64,000 nucleotides of DNA. Origin: Protoeuglena noctilucae (lineage: Eukaryota). The translations under genes were made by a program, and so were the position numbers. The notes beneath the pieces were generated by a model. That model saw nothing but the letters and a program-made list of their open reading frames with translations. It did no database searches and had not been told where the DNA came from. Positions 183 to 55,872 of this stretch are shown in pieces. Position 1 is the first letter of the stretch, and every line of letters begins with the position of its first letter. The stretch lies in assembly GCA_958009085.1 (NCBI GenBank), contig OY253672.1, positions 124,001 to 188,000 on the forward strand, given 5' to 3'.

Positions 183-1913
183 ATGGGGCGGTCGTGGCGC
201 TACCTGGTCGCGCTCCTCGCGCTGGGTGCGGGCCTGCGCTGCGCGCGTTCCTTTCACGTGACGATCGCCGCGTCGGCCGAGGGCAGATGAGCGACTCTGC
301 GACATTTGTTCCCCCCTGACCCGCCGCAGTGTCGTGCGCCGGCTGGGCTCTGGGGTGCGTGCCACACGGGGGTCCGGGTTCGCCACGCGAATGCGCCGCC
401 CGGCGGCACCCGATGGTCGCCCGCGCCGGCCCTCCGGCTGATGGCGCGAGGCGTGTCATGCTGGCTAGGATTCTGCGCCATTGCCTCCCTCCGCTCCGCG
501 GCCTCGCAGGCGTACATTCTATGACATTCTGGAAGTGTCGCGGTCGGCCGACGAGGCCCAGATCAAGCGGGCGTTCCGGAAGCTGGCGATGCAATATCAT
601 CCGGACAGAAACCCTGGTGAGCGCGGGGCCGGTTTCCCGGCCCCGGAGGCCCTGGATGCCCCGGTAAAGGCGGCCTGCGTGCCTTCCGCCCTTCAGGGGA
701 CGAGAGCGCGGCGAAGAAATTTGCCGAGATAAACGAGGCGTACGAGGTGCTGTCTGACCGGGAGACGCGCGCGATCTACGACCAGCACGGGGAGGAGGGG
801 GTGCGGCGCCACCGGGCGGGCGCGGGGCAGCAGCAGCAGGGCTTCCCGGGGGGCGTGCAGTTCGATTTCGGGGGCTTTTCTTTCAGCTTCGGGGACGACG
901 CGGCACAGAAGGAGGTCAAGGGCGACGACGTGGTGGTGGAGCTGTCCGTGACGCTCGAGGACCTGTACAACGGGCAGGAGTTCGCCCTGCACCGGGAGAA
1001 GGCCGTGTTCGTGGAAACGTCGGGCTTCAGGCGAGGGAGGGCCGGGCTGGCGGGCCCTCGGCTTGCCGAGCGAGCGCTTTCGCATGCGCCCATGTGCGGC
1101 CGCGCGCCCCTCGCAGGCAGTGCAACTGCCAGCAGAAGATGGTGACGCGCCAGCTGGGCCCGGGGATGTTCCAGCAGTACACGACGACGGAGTGCGAGCG
1201 GTGCCCCAATGTCAAGGCCGAGACGCGGGGGGAGGTGCTCGAGGTCCACGTCGAGCCCGGGATGCGCGAGGGCCAGGAGATCCGGTGCGGCGCTCGCGGC
1301 GCGGCATGATCGGAGTCCTCCGGCGCTGCCTGCCCGCCGTTCCCGAGACGACGCGTGGGGCTCTGCGCCCGCCGCAGGTTGCGCGAGGAGGGCGAGCCAC
1401 ACCCGGACGGGGAGGCTGGGGACCTGCGCTTCAGGCTTCGGCAGGAGCCGCACCCGCGCTTCCGCCGCGAGGACGATGACCTGCACTTCGACTTGCCGAT
1501 CACGCTGACCGAGGCGCTCGTGGGCTTCTCCAAGGCCATCCGGCACCTCGACGGCCACTGGGTCGAGGTCACAGAGTCCGGTGAGCGCGCAGGGTGTCGA
1601 GGAACCCCGCTCTCCAGCCGGGCTGCGGCTGCCACGAGCTCGGCCGCACGCCACGGGCAGGCGTCGCGTCGCGCAGCCACTCCTGGCACCGGGTGCGACC
1701 CCACAACCAACGAACGCGGAACCCTGACCCCCCGCGCCCGTCGCAGGCGTGACGAGGCACGGCGAGGAGCGCGTCGTGGCGGGCGAAGGTATGCCCATTC
1801 ATGACTCCTGGGGCAACTTCGGCGACCTCCACATCCACTTCCAGGTGGCGTTCCCCTCGGAGCTGACGCCGGCGCAGAAGGCGCAAGTGAGAAAGCTCGG
1901 GTTCACATACTGA
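183..1913 (+). CDS. ERDJ3: ER-luminal DnaJ co-chaperone (ERdj3/DNAJB11-like), multi-exon
   Basis: Spliced model gives a signal peptide ([23 protein letters not shown]) and a J-domain ([38 protein letters not shown] motif). It continues with a G/F region, CNC...QLGPGMFQQ...CERCPNVK, and a C-terminal domain ending [25 protein letters not shown]...LGFTY*. Confidence 0.93.
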
Positions 1914-1938
1914 CAAAAGCGCGATGCCGGGCGCTCAA

Positions 1939-2912
1939 TCACGACTCAAGGATGGTTTTAGAGACATCGTCAAGCATTTTTTTTATGCCCGTAAGTGATC
2001 TGTATGGCCAGCGCTTAATGGCATGTTTCCGGCAGATGCGCTTGAGCACCGTTTGGCCAACATTAAGCTCCTTTGCAGCCTCTTGGATTGGAAGGTGAAA
2101 AACTCTTCGCAAGTCGCCGAGGGCAATTTTTGTCGAGCCTTCCTGCACAACAACAGGCACAATGGCCAGTTAGGTTTTGTCACACCGCTGATCATGTTTC
2201 ACGTATTCTCTGCGCACCTTGTCAATGCCGTGCGACCGTGTCCCACTGCCGAAAAGTGGCACCAATGCCGTTGCTTGCACCTCCACGGTCTGCAAGATGA
2301 GAAGAAGGCCTGAGCAACCTGCAATAAAAGCAACAGACGCTGTAATACAAACACACACGAAAATGCAGAGCTTACCTTTCGCGCTACAAGGCTGAATCCT
2401 TCCATTGATTTTTCCGCCACAACTTTATCGAGAGTGCTGTCCAGATTCACTGTGTCGACGTTTCCAAGGCTGCCCATAGACATTTCCTTCCATGTCTGTT
2501 TGGAAAAGTAAGCGGACAATTTTGTTATTACAGATAGCCGCTGATGATGACAGCGACACGCTGATACGCAGGTTCCTAGAATTACCTGGCATCCTTCCCC
2601 GGCCTTTCTGCAGAGCACTTTGCAGTTCACTTCCCCTGATGGCTCGGTGACAAGCTCCACTTAAATAGATGTAGTTCCTGCAAAGAGATGGCGAATTAGG
2701 GTGTAATGGTAGGTTGTGATCACGTGAAAGCACACAAAGGATGGAAGGATGAAAACAATTTGAGTTGAAGTCTTCTAGCTGTCTGTTAATACATGTGTGC
2801 GTGGGTAAGCACCAGAAGACAGTTATAAGCCACAGAGAGGCATACCTCGAATCATTTCGAGGGACGCACACGGGTGCCCTGTGGGTGCGCCGCACTCGCT
2901 TGTGTGTTGCAT
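1939..2912 (-). CDS. Small RWP-RK transcription factor with C-terminal RWP-RK domain (MID-like architecture); possible in-frame stop
   Basis: Last exon 2142-1939 encodes LGDLRRVFHLPIQEAAKELNVGQTVLKRICRKHAIKRWPYRSL. Upstream GT-AG exons join in phase: MQHTSECG...EMIR / ...VELVTEPSGEVNCKVLCRKAGEGCQ / TWKEM...GFSLVARK / TVEV...GIDK. Total about 180 aa. Start codon and exon 2 acceptor are uncertain. Confidence 0.85.
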
Positions 2913-3581
2913 CCCTCGCCTCGGCTTTGCTCTACTTCCGCTAAATGAAAACAACTGTTTAAAGAAATACTGCGGCATTTCTTTACAATCAACAAGCCGC
3001 AAAGCCTTCGTTAAACGAAGGCTTCTTGCCAGAGCCTTCGTTGCCACGCCGCACGCATTAGACGCGCTGCGGGGGCCGCTGTCTCGCCACATTCACACAA
3101 GTGAAAGGCAGTAGAGCTGCATTGTTGCTTTCGAGGAAAGGGAGCAGTGGACCAGGAAGGCTGGCCTGGGCTGGCTTGAAAGGCACGGGAAGCACCTGAA
3201 GGCTCGGAAAGCAGATTGCAACGATGCATTCTGTGATAGGTGATACCGAAAGACGCCCCTGCTGGATCGACAGGCTGCACATTTATTGCAGTGCCAAGTG
3301 GCATTGCGCAAATGGGCTCTGATTGCTGATATATGAGCCAAAAGTAATATATATTGTGTTAAGCAACGTGGCGTTTCGCCCACGGCACGTGTTAACTTCT
3401 GAAGTGTCATGACGGCTGCATGTACGCTCATCGCCACTTGGCAGTGTCTGCCTTTGTATAACTCGCATTCTTTGCTGGCGACAACACTTTTCAGATACCC
3501 CTCTGTACTTAGTGAAAGATGTGATGACATAGTTGGTGTACAATGCTGCGTCGCAACTGAAATTAATATTCATGCATGCAG

Positions 3582-5035
3582 AAACCAAGGCGACGCCACG
3601 GAGCCAAGAATTGATGTCATTGGCCTCTGACATCGTCTGCATTACCCAGTCGGAAAGCAAGGTTTGTCAGTACAATTAATGTCTTTGAGCACTGAAAGTG
3701 CGATGTAGTTGAGCCTGTCTTCTCCGTTGCTTTGCAGGCCAAAAGTAAGGCTGGATCTACTGAAAAGTATAACAAGCGTGTTGGAAGTGATGATGCTGAA
3801 CAGCTAGACGGACACCCGGTGCGAGCCTTTATCTGATTTTCAGGATTACATTATAAATAATGTTTGTTGTAAAAAAAGAGCAATGTATCCCTCGCCTTGT
3901 CCGCAGACCATGACGTCCATCGCTACATGCTTTGACATGCCAATTGAGGAGGCGGCAAAGAAGCTTGGCGTCGGAGTAACTGTCTTAAAAAAGCACTGCA
4001 GGAAGCTTCAGATCGAGCGATGGCCATACAGGTGGTGGCACACTACTACGGACAACTTTGTTTGCAGATATCAACCGAGAACGTTATCTATATTTCTACA
4101 TGCAGAAAGCGAGTTGGTGTGAGAAAGACAATCAAGCAAATCACCAGTGAGGTTGACAAAATGGGAAAATCATGCCTTCCAAGTCCTTTGGCTCTGCAGC
4201 TTCAATGGCAAGTTCTGTTGACGCAACATCTAGCACAATTGATATCCTGCGGTTTTTTAAACAATCCTCACCCTCTTTTTAACCCCTTTTGTAACCTTGT
4301 GACCGCAGGGTCTCTGAGAGGACTAACACCACCTCGTCTTCGCAACAGAAGGACAGGTACCTTATTCTGCACGTCAATGCAGCAAGCTAATTGTATCGCT
4401 TAATAATTTATAAAGAAGGAAATTTTAGTTTCCCCCCCTTGTCTATGCAGTGAAAATAAAAACGATTTAGGCACGCTAAACGCCTCGGACCATGAAGTCT
4501 TGTCCTCACCAAGTAAGTTTTCATGCCCTTTAAGCTGAAATCTGACACATATCTCTGGGTAAATAATGTTATGGTTAATTTTACCTTGGGTCCTTGTTCT
4601 CGTCAGAATTACTTCAAGAGGAAAATGAAGAAACGACATCGGGCCTTCTACTTCCATTTATTCCGCCACACTGTGATACACCCTTTTCTCGTCAGCTGGC
4701 AAACCTTGAGGGACAGATGTCAAACAGTCCTGCCCAGCTCCCAGGAACGGAGGTCGTAGCAGCAGATTTTCTTTTTGCTGAAAATCTCTTCAACATCCAG
4801 TGAGTGGTGCTCTCGACCGTAATCAAACAATATATTTCCGCTTTCCACAAATGTACCACTATAATATATCAATACATCTCATTTGCAGGTTGGGAATCGA
4901 CCATCAAGATATACAATTTGACACCCTGCCTAAGTGCGACGAGAATTTTGCGCAAGAAGGTGAATAAGCAAGACAATTTGTTATCATGCAGACCAAACAA
5001 TTTTAAAGCATTTAATTGCAGTTATTGCAACATGA
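3582..5035 (+). CDS. Second RWP-RK transcription factor (central RWP-RK domain, multi-exon; true start probably further upstream)
   Basis: [40 protein letters not shown], then an intron (~4032-4105), then KRVGVRK, completing RWPYRK. In-phase exons can be chained upstream ([14 protein letters not shown]...) and downstream to TGA at 5033-5035. Confidence 0.8.
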
Positions 5036-5176
5036 ATATCACTTTGTGCATCAGCCACTCCACGCACCAGTTCAAGTGACTGCAGCCTGTGCCCGCTGCC
5101 GATCTGATCCCGCTTCGATTCAAACGTGACGTCCATTGACAGTTTCCATTTTCATTCCTAGCTGGCTAGCTGCCTC

Positions 5177-6454
5177 GTCACGCCGGCCCCCGCAAGTGCA
5201 CGCCGCTGCCACCCGTCGGCCCCGCGCCGGGGTGCCACGTTGAAAGCAGCCATGCCTCCCTCGAGGACCGAGACGCGTCGTGCTCGATCGGGCCGCCCGC
5301 CGTCGACCTCCCTGCGCGTCAGCCAGCGCGACGCCTCAGTCACGCCGCAAACGCATGCCGGGCGGCCCGTCTCGGCGTCCGCCCGCCCCGCACCTGCCCG
5401 CGCCAGCGATTCGATCTTCTGCAGGACCTTCTTGCCCAGCCTCACTCGGCTCTCGGGGGACGACACGAGCACCGGCGCGCCGCCGCCGGCCTTGGCCCCG
5501 GCCACGTCGGCTGCCCATGGGGACTCGGCGGGGGGGGGCGCTGCGAGCGGGGGCAGGGTGGGTCAGGGGCCGCCGCTCGCAGCATGGAGCCGCGGGCCAC
5601 CGCCCGTGGTGCCCCTGGACCGGCGCTCACCTGCGCAGGACACGCTCCCGGGACGACAGCGGGCGCGACTTGAGCGGGTACCCCCCCGGCGGCGTGCGGG
5701 CGCTCCGGGGAGCCGGGGCCGGGTGCGGGGCGGCGGCCGGCGGCTGCGGCCGCGGGGGTGCCCCCCCCGGCGGCGCTGCCCTGCCCGCCCCGCCGTCGGC
5801 GTGGGTCGCCCCCCCTCCCCCCAGTGCCAGCATGCGGCGCACCTCGCTGGAGCGCGGCTGGTTGATGACGGCCTTGACCGCCGGGGACAGGTCGCCCGCG
5901 CGGTAGTGGGCGGGGATGTGGGAGTGCGTGCTGTAGGCGCTGANNNNNNNNNNNNNNNNNNNNNNNNNNNNNNNNNNNNNNNNNNNNNNNNNNNNNNNNN
6001 NNNNNNNNNNNNNNNNNNNNNNNNNNNNNNNNNNNNNNNNNNNNNNNNNNNNNNNNNNNNNNNNNNNNNNNNNNNNNNNNNNNNNNNNNNNNNNNNNNNN
6101 NNNNNNNNNNNNNNNNNNNNNNNNNNNNNNNNNNNNNNNNNNNCACCGTGAAGATGCGCCCGTCCGCCTCGGGCGTGGGCGGCGCCACAATGCCCCTTGC
6201 GTTGCGCGTGCGCTTGAGCTGCCTCACGAACCGCCGCACCGCTGCGTCGGGGGGCGGGCGGGCCCCGTCGGCCACGGCGCCCCCCGGGGACCCCGGCTGC
6301 TTCTCCGCGTCGAGCTTGCGCGCGTGCAGCTGCGACGAGGACACGAGCGAGAAGGGGAAGAGGAACTTGGACGTGTAGGACGTGAAGGCGCTGAAGCTGG
6401 CCCTGCAAGCGGGAGAGGAGGCGTGGTCGCTGGGCCCTCACCCACATCACCCAC
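5177..6454 (-). other. 3' exons of an unidentified GC-rich protein-coding gene (gene X), 5'-truncated at the DnaJ duplication and interrupted by an assembly gap
   Basis: Minus-strand exon-like frames ASFSAFTSYTSKFLFPFSLVSSSQLHARKLD..., ...HSHIPAHYRAGDLSPAVKAVINQPRSSEVRRMLALG... and ...SPESRVRLGKKVLQKIESLARA are bounded by GT-AG sites. No family recognised, and continuity across the gap is unproven. Confidence 0.5.
5944..6143. other. Assembly gap (200 N)
   Basis: Run of N; same length as the second gap, so probably a placeholder size. Confidence 0.99.
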
Positions 6455-9400
6455 CTGTACAACGGGCAGGAGTTCGCCCTGCACCGGGAGAAGGCCGTGT
6501 TCGTGGAAACGTCGGGCTTCAGGCGAGGGAGGGCCGGGCTGGCGGGCCCTCGGCTTGCCGAGCGAGCGCTTTCGCATGCGCCCATGTGCGGCCGCGCGCC
6601 CCTCGCAGGCAGTGCAACTGCCAGCAGAAGATGGTGACGCGCCAGCTGGGCCCGGGGATGTTCCAGCAGTACACGACGACGGAGTGCGAGCGGTGCCCCA
6701 ATGTCAAGGCCGAGACGCGGGGGGAGGTGCTCGAGGTCCACGTCGAGCCCGGGATGCGCGAGGGCCAGGAGATCCGGTGCGGCGCTCGCGGCGCGGCATG
6801 ATCGGAGTCCTCCGGCGCTGCCTGCCCGCCGTTCCCGAGACGACGCGTGGGGCTCTGCGCCCGCCGCAGGTTGCGCGAGGAGGGCGAGCCACACCCGGAC
6901 GGGGAGGCTGGGGACCTGCGCTTCAGGCTTCGGCAGGAGCCGCACCCGCGCTTCCGCCGCGAGGACGATGACCTGCACTTCGACTTGCCGATCACGCTGA
7001 CCGAGGCGCTCGTGGGCTTCTCCAAGGCCATCCGGCACCTCGACGGCCACTGGGTCGAGGTCACAGAGTCCGGTGAGCGCGCAGGGTGTCGAGGAACCCC
7101 GCTCTCCAGCCGGGCTGCGGCTGCCACGAGCTCGGCCGCACGCCACGGGCAGGCGTCGCGTCGCGCAGCCACTCCCACAAGTGGGAGATTCACCGCGTGC
7201 CGGGACCTCGATTTTCGCGTACCGCCAGAACAGGGCCACAACAAGCCCGGTACGCGGTCGGTACGCGGTTTCCGGGGCCGCGGCCGCGTACCGCGGGTAC
7301 AGAGTCGTCACCGCCCTGGTACGCTCCTTTGGCGGTTTCAGCGCTCCAGCGGCGCCTCTCGCCCCGCGCATGCGCTCGCTCGTGGGTTTGAATACTAATG
7401 ATGCCGGCGCGCGAAGCGGGGCGGTCGCCGGGCGGCTCTGGAGACGGCGACTCTGGTTGCAAGGACGTGCGCGTTCCCGACGGCGACGCCGGCATCCGCA
7501 GGGACTGCGGGGGGTTCCTGAATATGAGGAGGTACCGCCGGTGGTTCCGGCGCCCTCTCGCCATCACTTTTCAGTCGACGCCACGGGTTTCCTGCGCTCT
7601 TGGAGGCGCTGCTCTGGCGAGGGGCGCGCGGGGACCGATATGGTCCAGCACACTGCGGGTCGTGTCGGCGGTTGATGGAGCGCGGCGTGTTTCCCGAGCC
7701 CATGAGCCCGGTCGAGGGCGCAGCGACGGCGGGGGCGGTGCATAGCGGATGGCATCCGACAGGCGCGTCTTGCGCGGGTTGCGCGCCGAGCCTGTGACTG
7801 CGCTGGAAGCTGGAAGCGTAACGGCATGCATCCACATACCCATGACTCGGGCAAACCCAGCCGCGCGCTCGGAGGGGGACGGCTGCACGGAGACGTGGAT
7901 CGCAGGCGGGCCCGAGGGACGCGCAGACGGACGGCTGCAGCACCTGACGAGTGCTATGGGCTTAGAGAATGTATCGCGATGTCGTAGCAAAGGCATGGAA
8001 GGGTACTGAGCGCTGCGGGCCCGCTCATCTGGGGGCAAGCTGATGCGAGACGCGACGCGGCGCTCGAGTCGCGCCGGCGCTAGCCAGTGGCCCCCGTGTG
8101 TTATTGAAGGATCCATGAGTTGCAGAAACACCGTAGTTTTGCCCGTCATTTGCCCGAGAGGCGCGGGGACGCGCTTGCAACTCCAATCAAATAACGGCAC
8201 CGAGGGTGCCGCGATGGAGATCCTGATGGTGGGAGATTGGTATGTGGCGTGTAAGCAACTCGTTGGGTGAAGGGCTAGATCACCAGCGCTTTCCGCAACC
8301 CCTCCGCAACCTGGGAGCAGGCTGGCGTTCCCTGACGCCCGTGTCGGGCGCCAGCTCGCGGCGTTTTCGGCGCGCAAAGGCCCAGCCGCACCTGCAGACG
8401 ATGCACAACCTACTTCTGCAGGTGTGGCTCGAGCGCCATGTAGGTCACAGCGTTTCCCGCCCTCTCGGGCGGGCGGCGTGTTCAAACGCAGCTCGAGTCT
8501 CCCGGCCCCGGGCGTGTGAGACGAGGGGATCCGGCCGCGTCGGGCTGTTTAGGCAGGGTGCCCACAAGGAGCCTTCCGGGGGCCGTTCTCGGCGTGCGCG
8601 AGGTATCTTGCCGCCTCCAAGCTACTGATGAGTTCAATCCCGTGCAAACTGCGTCGTCCGCGAGGTCCCGGAGCTGACGGTGAGCCACATCGCCGGCTCT
8701 GGACATCGGCCTGCCGGGGCCGCGATGGCCGCTCTCGCCCCTCCGAATGGACCTCAAGTGCTTTGTAGTAATGCTCTGCGCTGGATCCCTGCAGAATCCG
8801 CCGCTATCTCGCAGCGACTGGCGGGGCTGGCCTGGCTCGCAGCATACCCTGGCGATTGCGGCTACGATGCACTCAGGGCCCGCGCCGCACCCGCAGGAGA
8901 CGGTGGCTTACGTTCAGTCAATGCTGTGTCGCCGGTAGAGAGCCTCAGGTGAGGCCGCCTGTGTTGGCGTGTGGCCGATGCCAGGACGCAGTGGCTGAAG
9001 TGGCGTTTTCGTGCCGTCGTGGCGCATGCTGTGTGTGCTCTGGTGGCACGCGATGGGCCTCGCGTCATGGGCCTCCGTCAGCCGGCCGGCTCATGATCAG
9101 CCCAGCACCGTGCCGGTCAAATGTCGGTCACGCGATCTGCGCTGGACGCAGGACACCTGTCATGCTGTGAGCTCCATTCTCAGAGGCCGTGTCCTTGCTC
9201 GTTGCATCCAGGGTTGAGCAGAGGTGGCGGCACATGTGTTGCCGACCTGCTCTGTGCAGGCCTCAGAGCAGGTCGGCGTGCGAGAGGTGAGTCTGGTGCC
9301 TGCAGCTGTTCGCATAGGCAACCTTTGCCCCTTCTTCTGCAGTGCATGTCGATAAATGACAGACGCTGCCATTTGCGCTTGACGTGTGTGGCACGCCTAC

Positions 9401-11357
9401 TGTCGTGCGCCTGTGCAGCTGCGCCATGGCAGGTAGCGGAAGGGAGACGCTGACATGTTGCGTGACGGTGCACCCTTTGCTTGCGGATTCATGGGTTGCG
9501 GCTGCCTTTCACATGCTCCTGGTCTTCCCTCGCGGCGCACGGCCGTGGTGACCGCCCCTGGTGCATGGTGCAACTGCAGGCCGGCAGTTGTCGGAGGCCG
9601 AGCCTTGGCTGCGTGTCATCTCGGCTGTCTTCATTTCGCACCCTTCCAGACCATGCTTACTCGGTGAGCGTGGCCCACGCGCCTGCGCTGGCGTGTCGCT
9701 CAGCTGGGCCAGATGCATGCGAGGTCAGGAGGCTGCTCCAGTGGTGTGTGGCAGCGGCCGTTGGCAAGCGTGGTCCTGCATGCTCTTTCAGAGTAGCTGC
9801 CTTCAGCACGCATCCGTGTGTGCCCGGCCGTGCCTTGCGATGCAGTGTTGGTGGCTTGGGCGCTGACGCCACTATGATGCACTGGCAGACCTGCTGGCAA
9901 CATGGTCCGCAGTTATGCTGCTCACGCTTCATGCCCGCAGAGCATTGGGCAGGCTTTCACCTGGCGGTGGGCTGCGAGGTGAGTGCATGTTGTGAGCGGC
10001 ACGTCGCTGTAGGAGCTATAACTGCAGGGGAGGGCGCTCAACTTCTTGTCATCACTGCGCTGCTTTGCACCACACCTCTTGCCTCGCAAGAGTTCGGTCT
10101 GCAAGCTTCATGCTGGGTGTAGTACGCGCGGCTGCTGCTGCTGCCTGACGTGTGCGAGGTGTGCTGATGGGTGGGCGTTTGTGGGCTGAACTGGGCTTGG
10201 CATTGGAGATGGGCTGGTGGGCATGTTGAGTGTGTTGTCGCCAGCAGGGCCAAAGCCTAAGACGGTCCCCGTGTTCGTGCGCACAGCAACTGGGAGCCCA
10301 GGTTGTGAGCGGGGGACGGACGTGGCGTCGAGTGGCCCGAGCATTCGCGTGGGCGGTCAGACGAGGGCTGCCCGGGAGGTGTACGAGTGCTGCTGCAGTG
10401 CGTGCAGGTGGGCGGGTGCGAAGGCCTAAGACCAGCGCCATGGGGGCCTCCCGGCTGCCAATGCGCTTGCCTGCGCTGTCTGTATGTTATGTTATTATGT
10501 TATGTGGTATGTAGGATATGATCCTTGCGGCTGCCTTGCTGCCAGGCTTGTCTTGGTTGCTCGTGGCAGTGCAGCGGTGCAAAGTCGTGGGGCCGCCAGT
10601 TGCGGTGTGGCCGGGCCCGGTGGCCGATGCGCTGGCCTGCGCCGTTTGTGTGTGATGCCGAGGTGCTGCCCTGCTGCCTGTGTCTTGTTGTTACTTTGGC
10701 GTGCAGCGTTGCCGTGCTAAGTCGTGGGGCGCGTGGCGCGGGCGGCCTGTGCGCCTGCTGCGCGTGCCGCGCCTGCCTGCGCGCCTGCCGTCGTGGTGGC
10801 CATCTGCGGCCATTTATGAGTTCCTGGCCCTCCTGGCCCTGGTCACGTACTGACACTGGTTGAAGAGCAGTACCTACAGCGCATCCGCGGCCCGCAGCAG
10901 CCGAAACGTTCCACCAGCGTTCCAGAACCGCGTACTCGCGTTGTTCCGCCCGTGTTCCGCCCGAGTTCCCACCGCCTTGTACGGCCTGCGTATGCCTGCG
11001 TACGGCCGATGTACCGCCGCTGTACCGCCGTTGTTCCCTCCGCAGGCGTAAAAGTCGTGTACCGCGCCGGTACGCGGCGAATCTCCCACTAGTGCCTGGC
11101 ACCGGGTGCGACCCCACAACCAACGAACGCGGAACCCTGACCCCCCGCGCCTGTCGCAGGCGTGACGAGGCACGGCGAGGAGCGCGTCGTGGCGGGCGAA
11201 GGTATGCCCATTCATGACTCCTGGGGCAACTTCGGCGACCTCCACATCCACTTCCAGGTGGCGTTCCCCTCGGAGCTGACGCCGGCGCAGAAGGCGCAAG
11301 TGAGAAAGCTCGGGTTCACATACTGACAAAAGCGCGATGCCGGGCGCTCAATCACGA
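6453..11357 (+). pseudogene. 5'-truncated duplicate of the DnaJ gene (copy of 961-1944), split by a transposon
   Basis: 6453-7175 matches 961-1683 and 11095-11357 matches 1682-1944, including introns; one SNP seen (1739 C vs 11152 T). It lacks the signal peptide and J-domain exons. Confidence 0.95.
7176..11094. mobile_element. Non-autonomous CACTA/EnSpm-type DNA transposon, 3,919 bp, 2-bp TSD (CC)
   Basis: Left end CACAAGTGGGAGATTCACCGCGTGCCGG; reverse complement of right end CACTAGTGGGAGATTCGCCGCGTACCGG (28-bp imperfect TIR). Dense GTAC-centred subterminal repeats at both ends. The empty site GCCACT-CC-TGGCACC at 1676-1690 shows CC duplicated at 7174-7175 and 11095-11096. No transposase recognised. 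Confidence 0.9.
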
Positions 11358-11835
11358 GTCAGCATGGCCTGACTTTGACCTTAACCAAGTGCCCTACCCA
11401 AAAATGAAGCTAATTGTATCGCTATTCGCCAGAAGAAGAGTTGATTTGGAAAAGTCTGTGCGTCTGCAAACAACTTTCCGAAGCATTTTAGCTTAAGCGA
11501 AGAGAGAAAAGTAAGTTCAAGCTTGCGCTGCGGACACAAGGGCGACCGCGCCTCATCCCATGAGCCTTGCAGAGCCTGCTTTGGTGAGCAACGCGGTCTG
11601 AAACCTTCTCATCTGGAGTTATACGTGCAACACGAAATGTTGACGCGGAAGACGAATGGCCCACATCAACCGTTCGTCTTCCTCAATCCTGCTACGAGAT
11701 TGGCTTCGCGAAAGCTGCACTTATTGCTTCTGCAAGCTTTTTGCGTTGTGCACGAAGTTTAAAATAGACATTGGAACGTTGAGGCTCATATTCTACCCTA
11801 ATATGAATTTTTTTTTTCCTTTTCAGGTCAAGGCC

Positions 11836-14800
11836 ATGAAGCCTACAGCCATGTTATTAATACTACTCGTGGGACTGGTGCTGTCCCTTGCCACAATTTG
11901 CTCGTGCGGTGGCCAGGTTAGTTTGTAGAGCAGGGGAACTGTCGTCCGGATAAAAGCTATTTGCAGAAATTCAGGCGCTGACAATGCTGGTTAAAATGTT
12001 TGTCTTGTCTCACTTCTGACTTCGCAGACTTCTGGAACCTTGACTTATAATGTGAATTTCTGCCAGCAAAAGTCATTGTCTGTGGCTGCAGGCACAGGTA
12101 AGCAATTAATGCGAGTGTAGCTTATGCACGTATGGATATCATGTCGAGACCAGACAAAACTAAATAAAGACGTTGATGCTCTGCTCGCAGTGCAGGGCAC
12201 CGAAGTAGATTTGTCCTTATCTTTTAACACCAACAGCCTTACAAACGTCTCTTTGGGCCGCATGCTGCCCGTTGCATTCAACATTACATACACGTCGCAG
12301 ACAACGTCTTTGCTGGCTGGGCAAAGGAACGCAAGTCGAGCTCGGATGTTCATCCAGGCAAGCCCAAGGATGCCCAGAACAGAACTTCAAAACATAAATC
12401 GCATTTGACATTAAGTTCTTGTTCTTATTACACGCAGATTCTCAATGATGCAACTGGCGGCGTCGTCTCGGAAGAGCAGCAGTTTGTTTCGTGGATCGCG
12501 AACGCAGATGGAACTGTTCTTACTGTGTCTTGGCTCATTACTCCGATTGACAGCGTCAACGAGCAAAATTTGCTCATTGGTGAGTAAATAATGTAAGAAA
12601 ATTTTATGTGTGGTACTTGTGTGTTTGTAATATTGGACCCCTTATTTGATGTTGCAGCGGTGTCCAGTCTGCAGCAAGACGACCCCAAGTTGGTTCCTGG
12701 AGGTTGGCCTTCATGCAACGTCGACGTTACCAATGGAACGCTGTTGTCCGCATCTCCTCAAGTTGCATATCAAGGACTATATGCACTTTACAACAACTCA
12801 CCGTGCTGCATATGGAGCAAAGCATGGAATGCATGCGTTGATGCTAGTATATTCCCGGAGCTTCATTTGTCATACACATTGGTGAGATCTGCTATCTTAA
12901 TCGTGGCAATTTTGCATCCTAGAATCATATGAACTCAACGACGCTCTCTGCTCTCCATTGCAGGAGGTATCGTCCAATCCTGCATCAGCAAGCAAACTAA
13001 GTATCTTTGGCGGGTACGTGGGAGGAACTAACAGTGCCAGAATAATGGAAGCAAACTTTTTTATGGAGGACGCTCACAATGTTCAATGTTCACTTCTCAC
13101 ACAAAATCAAGACCAAGGATCAACTTCGGCGATATACATCGTTCTTGATAAGCCAAGTCTTCCCACATCATGTCAAGACGCATCTGTCCAGTACGAGCTT
13201 TACTTGCCTTCTCTGACGGTAAGAGGCCTACGGACCCGGGCTACAAATCGTATTCACTTATATCTCAATAGAAAACTAAATCTGGTCTTATATGTAGTTC
13301 TTTGCAGGTTGATATGGGCATCAATTATAATGATGATCTGGTGTACGGCTGGCCTTCGGACACCGTCCAAGCGGACTACATTTTCCGCAGAGGTGCAGCC
13401 TTTACCTGGAATTTATTGCATCAAACAAGCTTGTTTCCTTACGATATGCGGTCAAGCACAAGCGCCTTAACAAATAGCGGTTACTTCCATGTCACTGTCA
13501 CGGCGGACTTTTCGCAGTGGACAGGAATTCCGTCGTCGACAGCGGCTGCTTCGGCAGAGCTGGACACATGGAGCACAGGTGACACAGCGTCGTCGATATT
13601 GCAGCGTGGTATCCTGATCTACACTGTTTTGATGAGATAACTAATGCGGTATATTGTCTTTCTTTTAACTGCAGTTTTTGCAACTTACATGTCCCAAGAA
13701 GGAGGGTCGGCTTTGCAGAAACCGGCTGTCGAGATTTTGTCAGCCGTAGTCACATACCCAAACTGGCCCTCTACACTAGCGGGCGGCCCAATGATCTTTA
13801 AGTTTCAGGTGAGGTATATGGTGCGTAAGTTGGTACCTTGGTTACCTTATGGTTGCGATAGCCGCCGTTATAATTGTGAAAACGTTTTATAATTGTTTGC
13901 AGGGGCAATATAACTTGGCAGCAAACATTGACGCAAAAGAGCTGAGTTGGGCTGCAACAAATTACCTATTATATCATGCCAACGACTGTCTACTGCCGTC
14001 GTGGTCTTTGTTCCAAAACCGACTGTGGAACATTGTTGACGTCAGTCAAGTCAATGGTGTCTTTTCTGCAACAATATATTTTCTTCCTGAGGGTATGACA
14101 AGTGAGTTTTAATCACAAGAGCAAAACCACATACATGTCGACTTCCAGCACTAACAAAATTTGTTTAGTTGTCGCAGGTTTCCAAGTGAATGATGCTTTG
14201 CACTACATTTTCACATCAACGGACCAAAGTTTTGACGTCTTTTCTCAGGTGACGTTGACAAACGCAGATAGCTTCCAGTTTTTGGAGCTTCCAAAGCAGC
14301 CCTCAGCGTATGGGCAAATCATGTTTGCCGTTATTGGCGACACAGTGGCAGATGTGACGCTGACAGATGCCACTGCGAAAAATTTTGTCGCATCCATCTC
14401 CTATCCTCTCACCGGCGTGCTGCTCGCGGTTTCAGCTCCTCTTCTTAATGCTGAAAACAAATGGGAGACAATAATTACACTTGATTATGCTAGCCTTGAT
14501 AGCTATGATATATTGTCAGCGCAAAATATGAGGAATGATGTACTTATGCCACTGGCTTTCCAATATTTCTTTCAAAACCAGACATTGTCATTAGATCCAT
14601 GCAAAGACAACGGGAGCTTAGTGTCAATACTTTCTTGGCCAGCTGTAGTATCCCTGCCACTGTCATCGAACCCTGCCTTGCATGTGACCGGCGAATTTGT
14701 ATGGCAAAGTCAATCCGACCCTGTTTTGATAGAGAAGCAACTGCAAAGCAGTGTCAGCAATCTTCTTGCTAGCTGTACGTCACTAACATTGGCGGAGGCC

Positions 14801-17800
14801 ACGTGGCGTGTGACTGTTGGACTTAGCCCATTCTTTTCGTTTCCTGGCCGTACCAGTGTTTTTATTGACGTCGTCGCATTGCCAGACGCCTCAAGCGCGC
14901 AGGCATTGCAAACTAAGCTGACTGAAAGCAGTTTCCTAAAGAGTTTCGAGGGCACCACAAACGGCATCTTAGATATCAAAGACGTCCAAATATCTGGATT
15001 TGACACGTTTGCACAAAAAGCGGGCGTGACCTCACAGCCCATTTTAAAATGTTCCCTCCTACTTTCAAACGGCAACGCAATACCATTTGGGTCTTTGTCA
15101 TCTCTTTTCATTCGCAATTCCATATCGACCTCTCTTTCCCTCCCTATGACAAATGTTGTAATAACTGAAGCCCTTGCTTCTAATCAAGACTTGTATGTAA
15201 GCGTAGAAATAAGTGCTCCAGATTACATATCTACTCAAGAGATATATTTTGCTTTATTAACTGTGGACTCTTCCTCATGGATAATGTCTTGGACAGACCA
15301 GTACCCGTGGGTGCCCTACACGGAGGTTGCCATTTCGGGCACACCCTCTTTTTACTGGTATGGAATGGAAGACAACGATATCTTATTTATTAAGGGCTCA
15401 TCTGTGAGTTGTGTGGTTGCAGAGCCATATTGCCAGGTTCAGGTGTTAAAAGCCCTGATGGGCCATGCTAGCACAACGGCAAGAATTCAGCTCGAGCAAA
15501 TAGACGGTGAATTTACATTTTCAGGCCAAATAAAGTATCTTCATAGCACTGCCCAGGCAAATGACGTCATAAAATCAGTGCTGCAGGCTGACAACAGCGA
15601 GTTTGCAGTCCTTTCTTCAAGCATATCGAAAAATTACACCTCTTTTCAGCCACCAAACGAGCCTTACTTCGCTGTGTCCATAACTGTCGAAACTAGCGGA
15701 AGTGTGCTGCTGTCGGATAGCAGGGAAAACGAAGAAGAAATAAAAAAGGCTTTACAAGTTGTTATCCCTTTTGTGTCGCTGAGTGAAATGGAAGTCCTTA
15801 CTGCTCCTTGCTCATCCTTGATGTGTTCCCGTGTGTCGATTGGAACTCTGCCAGACGTCACTGGTGCTGTTAATGTTGCCCAAATTCTTGGATCTTCATT
15901 CCAGGCTGTCCACGACAGCTGCATGTCTGTCATTGCTGGGCATCTAGAGTATGTAAATTTTATAGGAATGCAAGTTATTTACGATTCTTGGGTATCGCCC
16001 GTGATTTCAACTTCTGCATCTGCTACTTTGCTACATAATGCTACCCCCGCTCTGCTAAGCGACGTTTATTCTATTTGCAAAAAACTGTTCTCCGTTGTCC
16101 TTCCCGACTACCAGTTGTGGAGAGTAAGTGTTAATGATCTGAGTTACACAGAGAGTCACGCAACATTCTCATGTAGTCTGGCTCAGATCCCTGCTGCTGT
16201 TTGGGACTCATCCATCTTGGACACGACCACTGCCGCAATTTTGTTTGCCTCGAAGCAGATTCCGTCTTATGGGCTTGTGTCTCTCTCAGATGTCCAAGTA
16301 CAGGGTTGTAATGTTGACAAAACGACCATGCCAAACGGTGACCATATATACGACGTCTGGAACAGTCCCACTGCGTCTTTCCAGCTTGCACTAAATCGTG
16401 CCACTTTCAATGGCTCATTTGCATTTTCCATTGCTGAGCAGAACCAAATCCTTCTAGCCTTGTCAACGCACCTTGGCTTGCCTTTGCCATCTCTGGGAGT
16501 TACTAGAATACAAATGCATATACCTGACGAGCAGCTGTTTTCTGACTCGGCCTCATGGGTCGTCGATAATTCTTCCTCGACATCAACGTATCTGGTAGAT
16601 GAAGTTGTAAGTGCTGGCTCGGAGATGTATTGGAGCGAGTTTCATGATGTGGCTGCACATGTCACTCAGGCACTAAAAATGTTACCTGCGGACATATTCA
16701 ACAATTACTGGGAAGGAATTGAGGTCTCGTTTGTCTCCCCTGTCAGTATTGGTTTTCCTTCTCGAGAAAGCTACATTGAGCTGGCTTTGTCGCTGGAGGT
16801 GTGCGGAAGCAACTTGGAACAGCAAAGTGCTTGTCAGGACATAATGCCGCTAGTTTGTCCCCCTTCTTTGCCTGTGAAGTGCTTCCCATTTCAGGTTTCT
16901 TGCAACATATCAAGTGTAAATGGCAATTGTGCAACTATGGATACAACTGTAAAGTTCATTAACAACCCCGTTGAGGCCGCTACGTTTTCAACTGATATTC
17001 AGATATATCTTTACAAGCTCATGTCTGTCAAACCGGTTGCAATTTCTGACTTTTCGTCTGTGAGGGTCATTACATGGCCAATTGCCTTTCCGTTCTTAGA
17101 AATAAGCGGCTCAGTCACTTGCGTTACAGATGTCACAAGTGATATGTTTTGGCTCAATCGGTATATATCAAATTCAAACATGGCGATGTCAATAGCAGCC
17201 TACCAAGGAGAGCAAATTGGGTCTGACACAACAAGTGTTACGTTAAGATTCCATCCGCAGCACAACTTAGGTGAATACCAGGAAGAAGTGCAGCAATTTT
17301 ATTCTGTAATGGCTAGTTTGGCAGCATACATGGAATCTTTCCATGTTTGCTCCCTGCAGTTAATACAGCCTGCAATAATTGTCGATCCCAACCGGCCTTC
17401 TAAACCATCTGTGTCTTTCCTGTCCAATAATGTGAAATCGAATGATTCAGTGATTGAGTTACTCACAGCGCATGGGTTGCCGCACGTTCAGAAATCACAG
17501 ACGAACATCTTACCATATAATACAACGTCCACACTGGTGTCCATTGCAAGTGTGGGTAGTTGGTCAACAATATACAGCATTAAGCAAGCATTCGCAAGCA
17601 CTGCAAACATATATGATGTTGCAACAAGTCCGCCATTCGTTTCTTGGCCCATCGGGTACAAGCCTACGCCTACCTTGTGTAGGACATCTGTCACCATGTC
17701 TGGATTCCCCATTCTTCCTTGGACAACAACTTCCGACGTCATGCTTGGAGATGCTCTGTCTACATTCGGTGAAGCGGCTGTTGTAAAAGTCAATGTTTTG

Positions 17801-20800
17801 TCCAGTGTTTTGGCTGGGGATGATAAAGACGAAATTGAGGCAACCGTTATATTTCAAAAGACGCCTGGCGTTTCCTTTATCTCAGACATGGACAATATCT
17901 ACACATCATGCAATCAGCTGCTCCAAATGTTGCAAAGTAGCACTAGCGTGTACAGCAAGAGCCTTCCCAGCTATGTTGTTTCTGCTGAAACTCAAGTTAC
18001 TGTTTGGCCAGGCGTGGATCGATCGTATGACAGCCTTGATTTTCAGTACGGTTTCATTGATTTTTCAGGCTACATCAGACAAAATGGGACTCAAGTTAAT
18101 GAAGTCGTAGAACTTGTTAAAAAATACAACTTGGTCGCCATGTACAACACCAGAATCGACACATTTTCTGATTCATTGAGATTGTCTCTTTTTGATTTTC
18201 AAAGCGAAAGTGATTCAGATTATGCTGTCTCTCAAGTCTGGCAGGCACTGTCTCTAACCAATTTCAGTGCCATCTCAGGCCTTTCTTTCTTAAAAATGTC
18301 CTCGAGCCTTCAGTCCTGTAGTGCAACATTGTTGGAGGCAAGCACGTCTGTTAAATTGTACATGAATGTTGGTGCTGACAGAGATGCTTTTGTTGAAGGA
18401 AGTAATGTCTTAGAATACCTGGCAAATACGATTGCCGGTAGTTATAAAACGTCTTCTCGTGTAACAAACGTCACGTCTGACACTGACGGGATTCTCTACT
18501 CTATCCGTGTCTGTAACATTGACGCATCAGATGCAATCACAATCAAAAATCAACTCGGGAACGCGACAAGTGCTTTAAAAAATGATGCCACGGTAAGATG
18601 TGCATCACGCTTTCACAAGGTCATTACTTTGTCACTTTTTTGCAAAACAGTTTTCAACCTTCCATTTCCGCAGGCTCTGCAAACATTGACACAGTTCACA
18701 CGTGATACGCTAGTACAGAGACTGGAGGTAAGAACGTACAGCACAGTGGTCTTGCCGGAGACGCAGGAGACATCATATCTCTACTCCTTCACAGCATATG
18801 TACAGAGGGACACCGATGATTGGTGGAGTATCCTGGATGTGGCAAGCTTTGTTACATGGAATGTTCTTAGCCAAGACACCTATTTTGTCAGCATGGTAGA
18901 GCAATGGCAGATTTATGGCGTGGTCAGCAGTGTTAGCAGCAAATGGATGCAGAATGCATCTGGGACAAGCTCATTTGTGACAGCGGTAACCGTTAATGTG
19001 CAACTTAGTGGAAGCTCGCCAACACCGGAGTACATCACCTTAAGCCATGAGCAACTCTGCAATTTGCAAGAGTACCTGCATAACTCATTGTACGCTGCCA
19101 GCCTTGCAGACCTTGCCATTGTCGACGCAGTTGTATGTAACGTCGAGTTCACTTCCACGTCCCAGGCCCCATATGTGTCTTTTACAGCGTCGCTTTACAG
19201 TGCCGACCTTAGTTCTCCGACAGACACCGAGGTTCAATGTATCCAGGAAGCGATGGCATGGGGCATGGGTGCCGGGACTGGAGTGTTTGACATAAGCATA
19301 ACAGTGCTTACAACGTCGCCTGGGTGGATCTATGTCAGCGTAAATATCAGGCTTGCAAGGCTGGACCCTTTCGATGCAGCATCGCAAGCATTGGATCTTT
19401 TGACTCATAATAACGTCTTGACCCTTTTCCCGTCAGCGAAGTTGATTAATATTGTTGATTTCCCACTCCCAAGCCCGCTTCCAGAAGCGTTTTACTCTGC
19501 TACCTATGTCTCAACCTCTAACGTTGACGCTTTTGTACTAATAAACAAAATAACTGACACTTATCCCAACAGCCTGATCTTCTCATACATGACATATGAA
19601 CAAAACACGACGGTCCAGCTTATGCTGTTACCTGCAGACATGCATATGTTGGCTGATGAAGGTGATGGCATTGGAATGGAATTAAATTCATTAGTTTTGT
19701 ATGACACCGTTATCAATGACGACAAGTTTCAATACATGGGCAGCGTTAACGTGAATTCTACTTATAATGAGTCTGTGTCCTCCTTTATAATTATTCGAAA
19801 TGCGCTGGCAATTTTGCTGAATATTCCCCAGAAACTACTTGTTGTCAGTGTAGATGCTTCAACAGTCACATACCAGATGATGGAAGGTTCGTTTTTAGAC
19901 CCTTTGACGGCAATCTCATCGTGGAAAAGTTTGCAGTTGGGAGACGTTCTTTGGAGCTCTATCCCTTTGTGCTCAGGGAGCTGTCACGACATTGTTTCTC
20001 TTACGCCCGCGTTCCCTTTTTCTTTTCCTGCATCGTGCATGGGCAGCAGCACAGCTGCAAATATGAACACAGCAGCAATTTCATGTGCTGGGCAGGCATC
20101 TGTGTCTGTAGTAGTGAAGATAGCATGTATGGACCAACAATGAAGCATTCTTGACGTGCAAAACTTCGTAATTCAGATGAAGACGACCCTTGCGAACATA
20201 ACTCAGGCAAATGTACCAGAAAAAAATGTGTTTGTGAAAATCCAAGTTTTGCCTGAGCAGCAGGAAACTATTGAGGACTGCACCAGCCTTTGTAGTCTCG
20301 GCATTCATGTGATTGATTTAACATTTCTTGAGTCTGCATGGGAAGTGTCAAGCGCAATGTCCAAAACTTTGCAAGTTCTCAACTCCGAGACTGGCGCACG
20401 CTTCACAGCAACTGTGGAGGGCCTGACGTACTAACCCAGCATAACTTTCGATCAAGCCTCTCAAGTGATTGGCTCAATCAGCTTGGTAAGGATGCATCGA
20501 GCAATAGCGTGCTTTAGCTTTACACCAAAAATTTTGCGCTTGTAATTTCTGTCTCTCTGAAAATTTGGTTGCAGGTTTCCAGGTCTGCTTGGGCGGACAG
20601 TAACACAAGTGATATCGTCGTTGATTTGCAGCAGACATTGGCCAAGCAACTGGGGTTAAATTCAAGTTTAGTCGCGTTATATCCAACAATTGCTCAAAGA
20701 TCTCTTCTGAGATCTTCTTTGGTTTTTAATGTACGTATTACGTGCACAAGTGACGAGGTTGCTCTGCAAGTGTGCAACAAACTAAGCACAGAGGCAGATC

Positions 20801-21186
20801 TTTTAGTATCAAAAATGACTTCGAAGTACATTGACTTACAAGATGCAACTGTTTCATGTTCGTTAAGGTAAGCGTTAAGTCTGCTTTCAAGTTGTATCTC
20901 ATAACTTTCTTCAATTTTTAACAATAACAATAACCATTCTCTATGCAGGACCGATGCATTTATCCCAACTCCAAATTTGAAAAGTTCGTGGTCGTCCCTA
21001 CTCATCCTCCCATGCATAATTATGGCGACCTTTGGAACGCTTTCGGTCTTCATTGCCATCACCCAGCGTTTCTGCGTCAGAGCAAATGCGGAGGTGAAAA
21101 ATGTTTCCTCTAGCTCTGTTGGATACTATACATTCGCTCCACGCCCAAGTTCAGGACCACGAGAAAGCGATTTGGGGACAGAATAG
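11836..21186 (+). CDS. Giant type I single-pass membrane protein (~2,770 codons, ~13 exons) with repeated SEA-like/alpha-beta extracellular modules; two in-frame stops
   Basis: Signal peptide MKPTAMLLILLVGLVLSLATICSCGG. About 12 short introns chain in phase around a 6-kb open segment (14102-20143). C-terminal hydrophobic helix LLILPCIIMATFGTLSVFIAIT precedes a ~40-aa tail. In-frame TGA at 20141-20143 and TAA at 20432-20434. Confidence 0.8.
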
Positions 21187-21212
21187 AGAGTCTGGTCGGA
21201 TGGCTCCTCTCC

Positions 21213-23304
21213 GTGCGGGGCAGCAATGGCACCATCACCTTCGCACGAGTACTCGCCAGTGCCATGAGTACCGAGAACCTGGACTTCCTCCTCAATCTCC
21301 TGCACACGGCCGACCGGGTCAACGACCTGGCTGTGACGGTCGCCGAGGACTCGACGCCGTTGCTCAGCTACATCATCAACCACCTGGAGCCCAGCCACGG
21401 AGTGCAGGTCCTTCGCGGTGAGTCGACATCGGCTACGATGATCGCTCTTGATGTTGGCATCAGTAGTCTATCAGGTGCATTTCTGCAAGATGCGCTCACC
21501 GGAACTGAACAGCTAAGCTCTCTCCCCCTGCACACAGCGGTGTTGGTGCGCCTGTGTGAGCTGAGGAGCCCTGCCCACGCGAAGGACATCGCTGCTCTCT
21601 TGACGGCCCCGGATGCTCAGTGGAACACACCGTTTCACCACGCTGTCATGGCGGGTAGCCCCGAGATCCTCCGCATGCTGCAGAGCTGCCTCATGTTCTG
21701 CGTGCACGCCTACGGGGTCGCGTGCAATCCATACGTCATGCAGAACTCCCAGGACAGAGTGCCGGCGGACATGGCGGGCACCATTGACTGGGAAGGAGAC
21801 TCGGGGTTCGCTCAGGTGTGGAGCAGCATAGGAAGTGTCAAGTCGCCCTGCAGTCGCCCTCTCCAGAGCACGCGCACGCGAGTCGGCATTTGCTGCTCAC
21901 AACTTGAGGACCACCGACCAGCCTATCAAACAGTGTGCAAGCCCTGCTTGCAGAGACAGATACAATCGCGTGCTCTGGCGACCTTCTTCGGCTTGGTGGG
22001 AAGCCTCGACGCGCAGCAGCAAGGTGCGCACCATGGCACGTTGCGGATCGTGTGTGCCACTTGGTTCTGGAGGGATGTGGCTGTGTTGTCTTCCTGTAGA
22101 TGTGCAGGATCCCTGCTGAGGCAAGACCGCAGCTAAGCTAACCAACTCCTTCCATCGACCCAGTGCGCGCAGAGCCGGGGCACGCACCAGGTGACGTGGC
22201 GCTTCAGATGGCCAACATGGTCCCTGACGACGACTTCGCGACAGTCTGCAACTGCGGGCTGTGGATCGAGCAGCTGGCGATGCATGGAACGGACATGGGC
22301 GCGGCCGGTGAAGCCAATTTCGTCCGCGCCTTGGTCATCCCAGCCATGCAGGCGGTGAGTCGTGAAAGCCACCAAGCGCTTCCCTCATATTGCGGTGTCG
22401 TATGCATCAACCGGGTCAGATCAAATTGCAAGTCACCCCGTCGTGTGCCCCACGCAGCTGCCGGAGCTTGGAATGCTGACGTCGTCGTCCCGCATGACCT
22501 GGGCGCACGTCGCCGCGTCGCTCCAGAACGATTACGTGGGAGCAGAGCTCGTCACGGCTGCCGCTGCGGGCCAGTGTCCCATGGACCTTCTGGTGCCTGA
22601 AACCGGCGTCACCGCTCTTCACCTCGCATGCCGTGCAGGCCATGCTGAGACAGGTCGGTGTCTAGTGACTGCGTCGGAGCGTACACCCTGCATCCTTACC
22701 AATTTCAAGCGGCTGAACGTTTCTGGTTTCCCTGGCGAGGCGTGCTTCCATCGCGACGACCCATCGGCTGCACATGCACCCGGCATTGCGCTTTGAGGGC
22801 CGTGTGACTAGCAACGGTCCAGCGAACACTCCTCGCAGTTTCGGCACTCCTCCAATCCGGTGCGAGCCCCACGGTCCTCAGTGCTGCCGGCATGGCACCC
22901 ATCCACGACGTGTGCTGCAACGCCCTCTTCATACCCAATGCCGTCGAAGTCGTGGGCCGGCTCCTGCAGCATGGAACCCCCCCGCTGCCACAGCGCAGCT
23001 GCTGTCGAGGACGCCCGCGTTCTTGCCATCCTGCGCCACACTGAGGGGAGCCGAGCGTCGTATGCCCATGGCCTTTGTCCTGCAGAGTGTCCTGCGCAGT
23101 GCGGTGAGGGCCATCTTCGCATCAAAGCATGTTACCTTCCTAAAGAATCCGTTGTGATTCTGTAGCCCCGTCTCCTTCACAGGCCCAGGGACCCAAATGG
23201 GGCCAGCACGGATGGCAGCACACCGTGACTGAGCTGGTGCAAGCGCTGGGACACAAGAACCCCAAGGCGACGATCCGAACCCTGCTGCCCGGGGTGGATT
23301 TCTG
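21213..23304 (+). pseudogene. Ankyrin-repeat protein gene, apparently frameshifted and possibly 5'-truncated
   Basis: Ankyrin motifs DAQWNTPFHHAVMAGSPEILRML, ETGVTALHLACRAGHAET/VSALLQSGASP and GMAPIHDVCC...VVGRLLQHG lie in spliced exons. The ankyrin-like frame appears to shift at the C7 run near 22977-22983 and near 23224. Confidence 0.65.
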
Positions 23305-55672: not shown

Positions 55673-55872
55673 NNNNNNNNNNNNNNNNNNNNNNNNNNNN
55701 NNNNNNNNNNNNNNNNNNNNNNNNNNNNNNNNNNNNNNNNNNNNNNNNNNNNNNNNNNNNNNNNNNNNNNNNNNNNNNNNNNNNNNNNNNNNNNNNNNNN
55801 NNNNNNNNNNNNNNNNNNNNNNNNNNNNNNNNNNNNNNNNNNNNNNNNNNNNNNNNNNNNNNNNNNNNNNNN
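55673..55872. other. Assembly gap (200 N)
   Basis: Run of N. Confidence 0.99.

Follow-up and report, generated by a model that had tools for sequence, protein, structure and literature searches.

In volvocine algae, Closterium and land plants, it is small RWP-RK factors that determine the fate of gametes or the mating type, and the excerpted sections of PMC10629530 describe RWP-RK control of such fates across green lineages, with a common ancestral switch for these lineages treated as an open question. The volvocacean MID proteins (163–167 aa) are encoded by genes with five exons and four introns and carry the RWP-RK domain at their C-terminus (PMC5493378, in excerpt), and "moderate %GC" is given as a common feature of MID (PMC3655996, in excerpt). 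Geng et al. (2023) found that the N domain of MID binds the dimerisation domain of VSR1, with no self-interaction of MID in the yeast two-hybrid system, while the land-plant RKD proteins govern egg-cell and gamete differentiation (both from the excerpted part of PMC10629530).

Small Mid-like proteins of prasinophytes and cryptophytes were noted in 2014 (PMC4086717). The candidate MT− regions of Ostreococcus and Micromonas are marked by RWP-RK genes (PMC8557840, in excerpt), and together with a gene of Ulva these genes are proposed mating-type determinants whose orthology to MID is described as unproven in the excerpts of PMC5601483 and PMC8557840. The excerpted text on Ulva judges the MID-length RWP-RK gene of the mt− locus to be non-orthologous to MID (PMC5601483), and the excerpts dealing with Chloropicon and Pseudoscourfieldia report nine RWP-RK genes each and no recognisable MID (PMC6731263, PMC13213038). 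Sex in cosmopolitan marine picoalgae has, according to the excerpt of PMC8557840, not been observed directly.

The gene described here, RWP1, is located on the minus strand (1939–2912) of a 64,000-nt stretch of DNA, hereafter the window. The initial annotation proposed it as a candidate for a MID-like sex-determining gene. The features of the region are as follows:

1682–1948, plus strand: 3′ end of a DnaJ gene (last exon 1746–1913, stop codon 1911–1913), convergent with RWP1
1939–2142, minus strand: RWP1 exon 5, which includes the stop codon; RWP-RK domain at approx. 1990–2127
2218–2289, minus strand: predicted RWP1 exon 4, from the rebuilt model and the frame score
2376–2495, minus strand: predicted RWP1 exon 3, 40 aa, without a Pfam family
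2586–2659, minus strand: predicted RWP1 exon 2, acceptor TTTAAG, donor GTAATT
2846–2912, minus strand: predicted RWP1 exon 1, ATG at 2912, donor GTATGC, proposed frame the best of three
1949–5104, no strand assigned: AT-rich island 1 (3156 nt, 46.5% GC), which contains RWP1 and RWP2
2913–3571, no strand assigned: spacer between the divergent starts of RWP1 and RWP2 (659 nt, 49.8% GC)
3572–4967, plus strand: RWP2, a second RWP-RK gene, head-to-head with RWP1 (tentative seven-exon model, 300 aa)
11361–21100, plus strand: AT-rich island 2 (9740 nt, 44.7% GC), with a giant gene
14099–20143, plus strand: giant intronless ORF of 2014 codons, flanked by ORF pieces

Rebuilding of RWP1 from the sequence yielded five exons separated by four introns (186, 90, 86 and 75 nt, all of them GT..AG), which end at a TGA codon (1939–1941) and encode a product of 178 aa. 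The initial annotation had described a short (approx. 180 aa), five-exon, low-GC gene, and the rebuilt model agrees with this: its coding sequence has 52.5% GC (GC3 57.5%) compared with 70% in the flanks, and all of the peptides quoted earlier are present in its translation. The position of the start is uncertain, since the frame is open upstream as far as 3092 and contains additional in-frame ATGs at 3092 and 2978. The acceptor of exon 2 (TTTAAG) is weak; a stronger alternative located upstream (2679/2678) was rejected, as it leads into a stop codon.

Within exon 5 the domain is not preceded by an in-frame ATG, and therefore a working gene requires upstream exons. Exons 1–4 are a prediction made from the sequence. 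The continuity of their open frame does not exceed chance, because an open GT..AG chain of at least 111 codons leading into exon 5 could likewise be built in 169 of 200 sequences obtained by dinucleotide shuffling of the 958 nt upstream. The GC content of exons 1–4 is higher than that of the introns by 0.113, a difference that was reached in 8 of 769 cases when the mask was shifted circularly, and in a scoring of codon usage (trained on the neighbouring 2014-codon ORF of island 2), the proposed frame was the best of the three in all five exons. The GC contrast and the frame score provide modest independent support for the exon model.

Exon 5 matched the Pfam RWP-RK family (PF02042) with an E-value of 1.9e-23 and a score of 82.5 bits (cut-off 29.3), the match covering residues 6–51 of the 67 encoded by this exon and positions 2–47 of the 49 in the profile. 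The C-terminal RWP-RK domain reported in the initial annotation is thus present: it occupies approx. residues 117–162 of the 178 in RWP1 and is followed by 16 residues. The four N-terminal exon pieces matched no Pfam family at E-values up to 10, which bears out the statement that the protein is without GAF or PB1 domains. These features (a short protein, the domain towards the C-terminus, no GAF-like or PB1 match) are those of the RKD-type, i.e. domain-only, RWP-RK proteins, and not those of the NLP (NIN-like) proteins, there being no GAF-like or PB1 Pfam match and only 16 residues beyond the domain. The signature motif of RWP1 reads RWPYRS, with serine at the last position of RWPxRK. Among 310 instances of the motif from 260 relatives, this position is K in 230, Q in 41, R in 11 and S in 4, which reveals that it varies within the RWP-RK family.

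A HMMER search with exon 5 against 1.84 billion representatives revealed 3409 proteins at E-values up to 0.001, including 66 at up to 1e-10 and two at up to 1e-30. Among the best 150 of these 3409, the sole match with 100% identity was a 73-aa ORF fragment from the window itself (P0001), and the other relatives were similar in the domain only (roughly 31–57% identity). The N-terminal 111 aa of RWP1 gave a best phmmer E-value of 0.16 and a best blastp E-value of 0.20 against the 150 nearest RWP-RK proteins, and no similarity to this part was found among the 262 RWP-RK proteins collected. A profile built from 30 small RWP-RK relatives produced 817 matches, and the best 120 of the 817 were nearly all land-plant RKD1–4; among these listed matches, RKD1–4 appear to be the closest named relatives of the RWP1-type domain. 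When names were sought for ten small relatives, a single taxon was obtained (a Pyramimonas transcript in the P0040 cluster).

A word-index homologue search with exon 5, restricted to longer proteins, returned 18 candidates, none of them significant. A scan of metagenome contigs for related loci gave seven loci with matches of merely 16–27 residues (48–65% identity), none of which represents a relative. No relative of RWP1 was detected in 2.9 million viral contigs by a scan that detects close relatives only, and a sequence search of the PDB with exon 5 yielded no matches.

The sequence was found in marine metagenomes and in four genome runs of a cultured organism; metatranscriptomes contain parts of it. 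Contigs from four runs were mapped over positions 1700–21400: DNA run X7, culture run X3 and the ocean metatranscriptomes X9 and X10. The DnaJ message is spliced from 1579 to 1746 (the joint was seen from the identical copy at 7071), and the joined RNA continues unspliced from 1746 to 2433 (X10) or 2811 (X9). It spans RWP1 exons 5–2 together with introns 4, 3 and 2, and ends before exon 1; no splice joint was found within 1939–2912 in the RNA contigs of X9 and X10. The stop codons of DnaJ (1911–1913) and RWP1 (1939–1941) are arranged tail-to-tail on opposite strands, 25 nt apart, and for this reason the RNA over RWP1 is best interpreted as readthrough from the 3′ end of DnaJ, in antisense orientation to RWP1. 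In the two runs, this unspliced continuation of the spliced DnaJ transcript is the only RNA over RWP1.

The DnaJ-joined RNA contigs pass the DnaJ stop codon by 500–900 nt, running antisense to RWP1 exons 5–2, and the RNA at 1746–2811 may represent a natural antisense transcript. RNA depth was 58–117 on 1700–2356 and zero over 3014–4327 and 10898–20752 in both RNA runs. Traces were present in X9 in two edge bins (0.39 in 4328–4984, and 3.83 in 20753–21400, which straddles the island edge), and in X10 the depth over RWP2 was zero throughout. The near-zero RNA depth over approx. 13 kb of island argues against appreciable carry-over of DNA in the RNA libraries. RWP2 and island 2 are essentially silent in the two ocean metatranscriptome runs covered, it being a property of RNA contigs that they are blind to low-level or stage-specific transcripts.

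The second gene of island 1, RWP2, encodes an RWP-RK domain in the exon at 3907–4031 (Pfam E-value 1.8e-20, obtained on 3907–4032). In the tentative model the domain is placed near the N-terminus and the C-terminal third is acidic, with a net charge of −15 over the last 120 aa. A maximal-ORF splice model of this gene was rejected, as it was over-fitted and cut the domain; the hand-checked model was used instead. RWP1 and RWP2 resemble each other in the domain alone, where 50 aa align at 50% identity, and differ in intron position, which indicates that the two genes are not recent duplicates. The spacer between their divergent starts is a putative shared promoter, as judged from this arrangement.

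DNA contigs of X7 cross both borders of island 1 (1757–2745 and 4750–5503), and in culture run X3 the segment 1915–5104 is contained in one contig with no differences (3190 nt). Island 1 is therefore not an assembly chimera. It was present in four of four genome runs under the same organism label (two samples), with a word share of 1.00, and neither terminal inverted repeats nor target-site duplications were found for it. At 5141–5549, X3 contains a variant contig only. The only X3 contig over 5082–5585 differs from the window by seven letters and two gaps (504 nt) and extends for approx. 880 nt unlike the window on the island side, and the neighbouring islands show no differences.

The GC content of the window is approx. 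70% (over 1–1948 and 21101–64000), and at all island borders it changes in steps within approx. 100 nt. The giant ORF of island 2 encodes a product with many Ser, Leu, Val and Thr residues. On visual inspection, the ORF pieces that flank it contain a signal-peptide-like start (approx. 11840) and a hydrophobic helix at the end (approx. 20990–21080); the giant gene is predicted to encode a membrane protein. No relative of the giant ORF was found in Pfam, in the PDB (by sequence) or in viral contigs, and its best score in the ESM Atlas (0.81) was under the meaningful level. Islands 1 and 2 have no similarity to each other, the protein level included. An X3 contig at 17706–18017 skips 310 nt (not a multiple of three) within the giant ORF at a depth of 43.5 compared with approx. 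100 for the surrounding contigs, which suggests a deletion variant in the culture.

The 3′ end of the DnaJ gene (1682–1948) is repeated at 11095–11360 (approx. 99% identity), directly before island 2, and the homology of the two copies ends inside the last three codons of RWP1. Both islands begin 36 nt after a DnaJ stop codon, behind copies of the same 267-nt DnaJ 3′ end. The second copy of DnaJ is partial: its other piece (6453–7175, 100% identical to 961–1683) is separated from the one at 11095–11360 by a 3.9-kb insert carrying its own spliced and expressed gene. Both islands are contained in X3 at similar depth (139 vs 107–160). The contig depths in this run (islands 107–160, GC-rich neighbours 136–277, the 723-nt repeat 696) are too uneven for conclusions on ploidy. 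In X3 the 723-nt DnaJ piece reaches a contig depth approx. five times that of the islands.

Several other features were observed in the window. A direct repeat of 0.9 kb (23500–24392 and 44287–45200, 96% identity, 20.8 kb apart) carries similar minus-strand ORFs, and a GC-rich tandem array with a 45-nt unit (approx. five overlapping 90-nt copies) is located at 51528–51797, beside an M20 peptidase gene. The window includes 400 N, of which 200 are at 5944–6143 and 200 end at 55872; the former gap is bridged by an RNA contig with 1018 letters. Rfam and tRNA scans of the window revealed nothing.

The other ORFs of the window represent ordinary green-lineage genes, among them DnaJ, a CCT-motif protein, isoamylase-like pieces, the CCT-gamma chaperonin and DNA ligase I. 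The environmental transcript P0266 is nearly identical to the CCT-gamma exons of the window, with departures only at intron read-through, and served as a proxy in a quick CCT-gamma tree (41 rows picked by name among the 120 matches listed). In this tree the proxy grouped with two environmental sequences (support 100) within a chlorophyte clade (SH-aLRT 96) and belonged to neither Chlorophyceae nor Trebouxiophyceae; its loose neighbours were Stichococcus-labelled and Acetabularia transcripts. The isoamylase piece matched only bacterial GlgX-like clusters in the ESM Atlas and was uninformative on taxonomy. The suggestion of a possibly non-volvocine lineage is thus upheld, and the host is, on these comparisons, a marine, non-volvocine chlorophyte.

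The gene at the RWP1 locus looks intact, and its small DNA-binding product falls into the domain-only RWP-RK class, to which the land-plant RKDs and the algal MID-like proteins belong. We consider it somewhat probable that RWP1 is a conditionally expressed, partner-dependent RKD/MID-like factor, paired with RWP2 in a silent AT-rich island. RWP1 would be a conditionally expressed transcription factor, silent in cells that are growing. It has no recognisable activation region and is thus likely to depend on a partner, for which the co-located RWP2 would be the obvious candidate. Together, RWP1 and RWP2 would redirect the transcription programme at a step of the life cycle or of gamete differentiation, in the manner of small RWP-RK factors elsewhere among the green lineages. 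By analogy, a life-cycle role, rather than one in e.g. nitrogen signalling, seems reasonable but is unproven, and RWP1 would putatively work like a MID/RKD-type factor, not as a demonstrated MID orthologue. The lack of a spliced RWP1 transcript, the chance-level continuity of the open frame through exons 1–4, the N-terminal 111 aa without a relative and the motif RWPYRS count against this explanation.

The GC steps within approx. 100 nt at every island border and the start of both islands after copies of the same 267-nt DnaJ 3′ end are also compatible with recently acquired or mobile DNA, in which the RWP-RK genes would be cargo with a function unrelated to sex (e.g. nitrogen response or defence-linked regulation). 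The products of the islands are orphans, and the islands are identical in the metagenome-derived window and in the culture, while the flank contig differs by seven letters and two gaps in 504 nt, which again favours acquisition. However, the island genes contain spliceosomal introns of host-like size, the ORFs scanned include no integrase or transposase family, and the search for terminal inverted repeats and target-site duplications came out negative. Nor do the islands show mutual similarity or relatives among the 2.9 million viral contigs (in a scan that detects close relatives only), and we regard such an origin as unlikely, though not negligible. Slightly less likely still, in our judgement, is that only the RWP-RK exon is real, as a decaying or never-expressed relic to which over-fitted exons 1–4 have been added. 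An equally long open splice chain in 169 of 200 shuffles, RNA without a splice joint in RWP1, an N-terminus without a homologue, the weak exon 2 acceptor (TTTAAG) and the replaced lysine of the motif all speak for a relic; against it stand an intact domain exon (82.5 bits) that depends on upstream coding sequence, an exon–intron GC contrast matched by just 8 of 769 shifts, the correct frame scoring best in all five exons, and the identity of island 1 in the window and culture run X3 (no differences in 3190 nt).

A further alternative is a true orthology between RWP1 and volvocine MID. RWP1 would then be the dominant determinant of one mating type, located in a mating-type-specific haplotype, with an N-domain that would bind a VSR1-like partner. 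The position of RWP1 in a sharply bounded AT-rich island, beside a longer RWP-RK gene whose product ends in an acidic region, and the lack of sense-strand spliced RWP1 RNA in vegetative ocean populations are in keeping with this proposal. Nevertheless, we consider it highly improbable: the N-terminus of RWP1 has no detectable similarity among the RWP-RK proteins collected (the 150 nearest; 262 in all), the nearest named domain relatives among the matches listed are plant RKDs, and Ulva, Chloropicon and Pseudoscourfieldia yielded MID-length or MID-like RWP-RK genes and, in the excerpts of PMC5601483, PMC6731263 and PMC13213038, no MID orthologue. Moreover, X3 contains both islands at similar contig depth (139 vs 107–160), and island 1 occurs in all four genome runs (two samples), with no strain without the island among them. 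A reading that takes in both islands, and which we consider improbable, is a compact mating-type-like locus of the size of a fungal MAT idiomorph, composed of the RWP1/RWP2 pair and a giant gamete-surface membrane protein. RWP1 would then be the small MID-like factor and RWP2 its longer partner with an activating region, and the islands would represent alternative haplotypes that were joined in the scaffold, or else a tandem pair active only in gametes. If true, a non-volvocine marine chlorophyte would possess a two-factor switch of the MID/VSR1 style together with a linked recognition protein.

In its preferred interpretation as a conditionally expressed RKD/MID-like factor, RWP1 draws its interest from its context more than from the MID label, and the compact two-island arrangement is the part most worth following up. 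A silent AT-rich island with two RWP-RK genes in a cultured marine chlorophyte offers a concrete and cheap target for tests.

Compared with MID as published, RWP1 is of similar length (178 vs 163–167 aa), has the same number of exons and introns (five and four) and carries its domain at the C-terminus; its 178 aa in the minimal model agree with the small size of the MID orthogroup (about 150–170 aa, with a C-terminal domain), and it would be longer if an upstream ATG were used. Its GC content is below the genome level, as is reminiscent of the moderate GC of MID (PMC3655996, in excerpt). In contrast, MID is volvocine and the host of RWP1 is not. The MID outline lacks specificity, being found also in plant RKDs and in many small RWP-RK proteins of algae. 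The resemblance to MID put forward in the initial annotation consequently holds for size, exon count, domain position and lower GC; outside the domain, RWP1 showed no similarity to the 150 nearest RWP-RK proteins (best phmmer E-value 0.16). The "N-terminal dimerisation domain" that it ascribed to MID is mistaken, since the excerpted results of PMC10629530 give no self-interaction of MID in the yeast two-hybrid system.

RKD1–4, MpRKD and RWP1 are all domain-only proteins that lack GAF and PB1 and carry the domain towards the C-terminus, and the RKD-named alignments (P0089, P0162 and P0095) show approx. 42–50% identity to RWP1 in the domain only. The RKDs are mostly 200–300 aa in length, compared with 178 aa for RWP1, and have no N-terminal sequence in common with it. 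RWP2 (approx. 300 aa, domain near the N-terminus) can be likened to VSR1 by description, not by sequence: both would be longer RWP-RK proteins with a likely activating acidic region (PMC10629530, in excerpt), and RWP2 adjoins the small RWP1, which has no such region.

The prediction that a MID-type gene would extend the ancestry of this sex-determination system is not borne out on present evidence, RWP1 being MID-like in outline only; it joins the prasinophyte, Ulva and Mamiellales genes as one more MID-like candidate, and the ancestry of MID is not extended thereby. The gene described here is comparable to RWP1 of Ulva partita and the MT− genes of Ostreococcus and Micromonas in that a small RWP-RK gene is situated, in a non-volvocine green alga, within a region of low GC or without recombination (PMC5601483 and PMC8557840, both in excerpt). 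The Ulva and Mamiellales regions extend over 0.45–1.5 Mb and were defined from two mating types, whereas island 1 comprises 3.2 kb and is represented by one haplotype.
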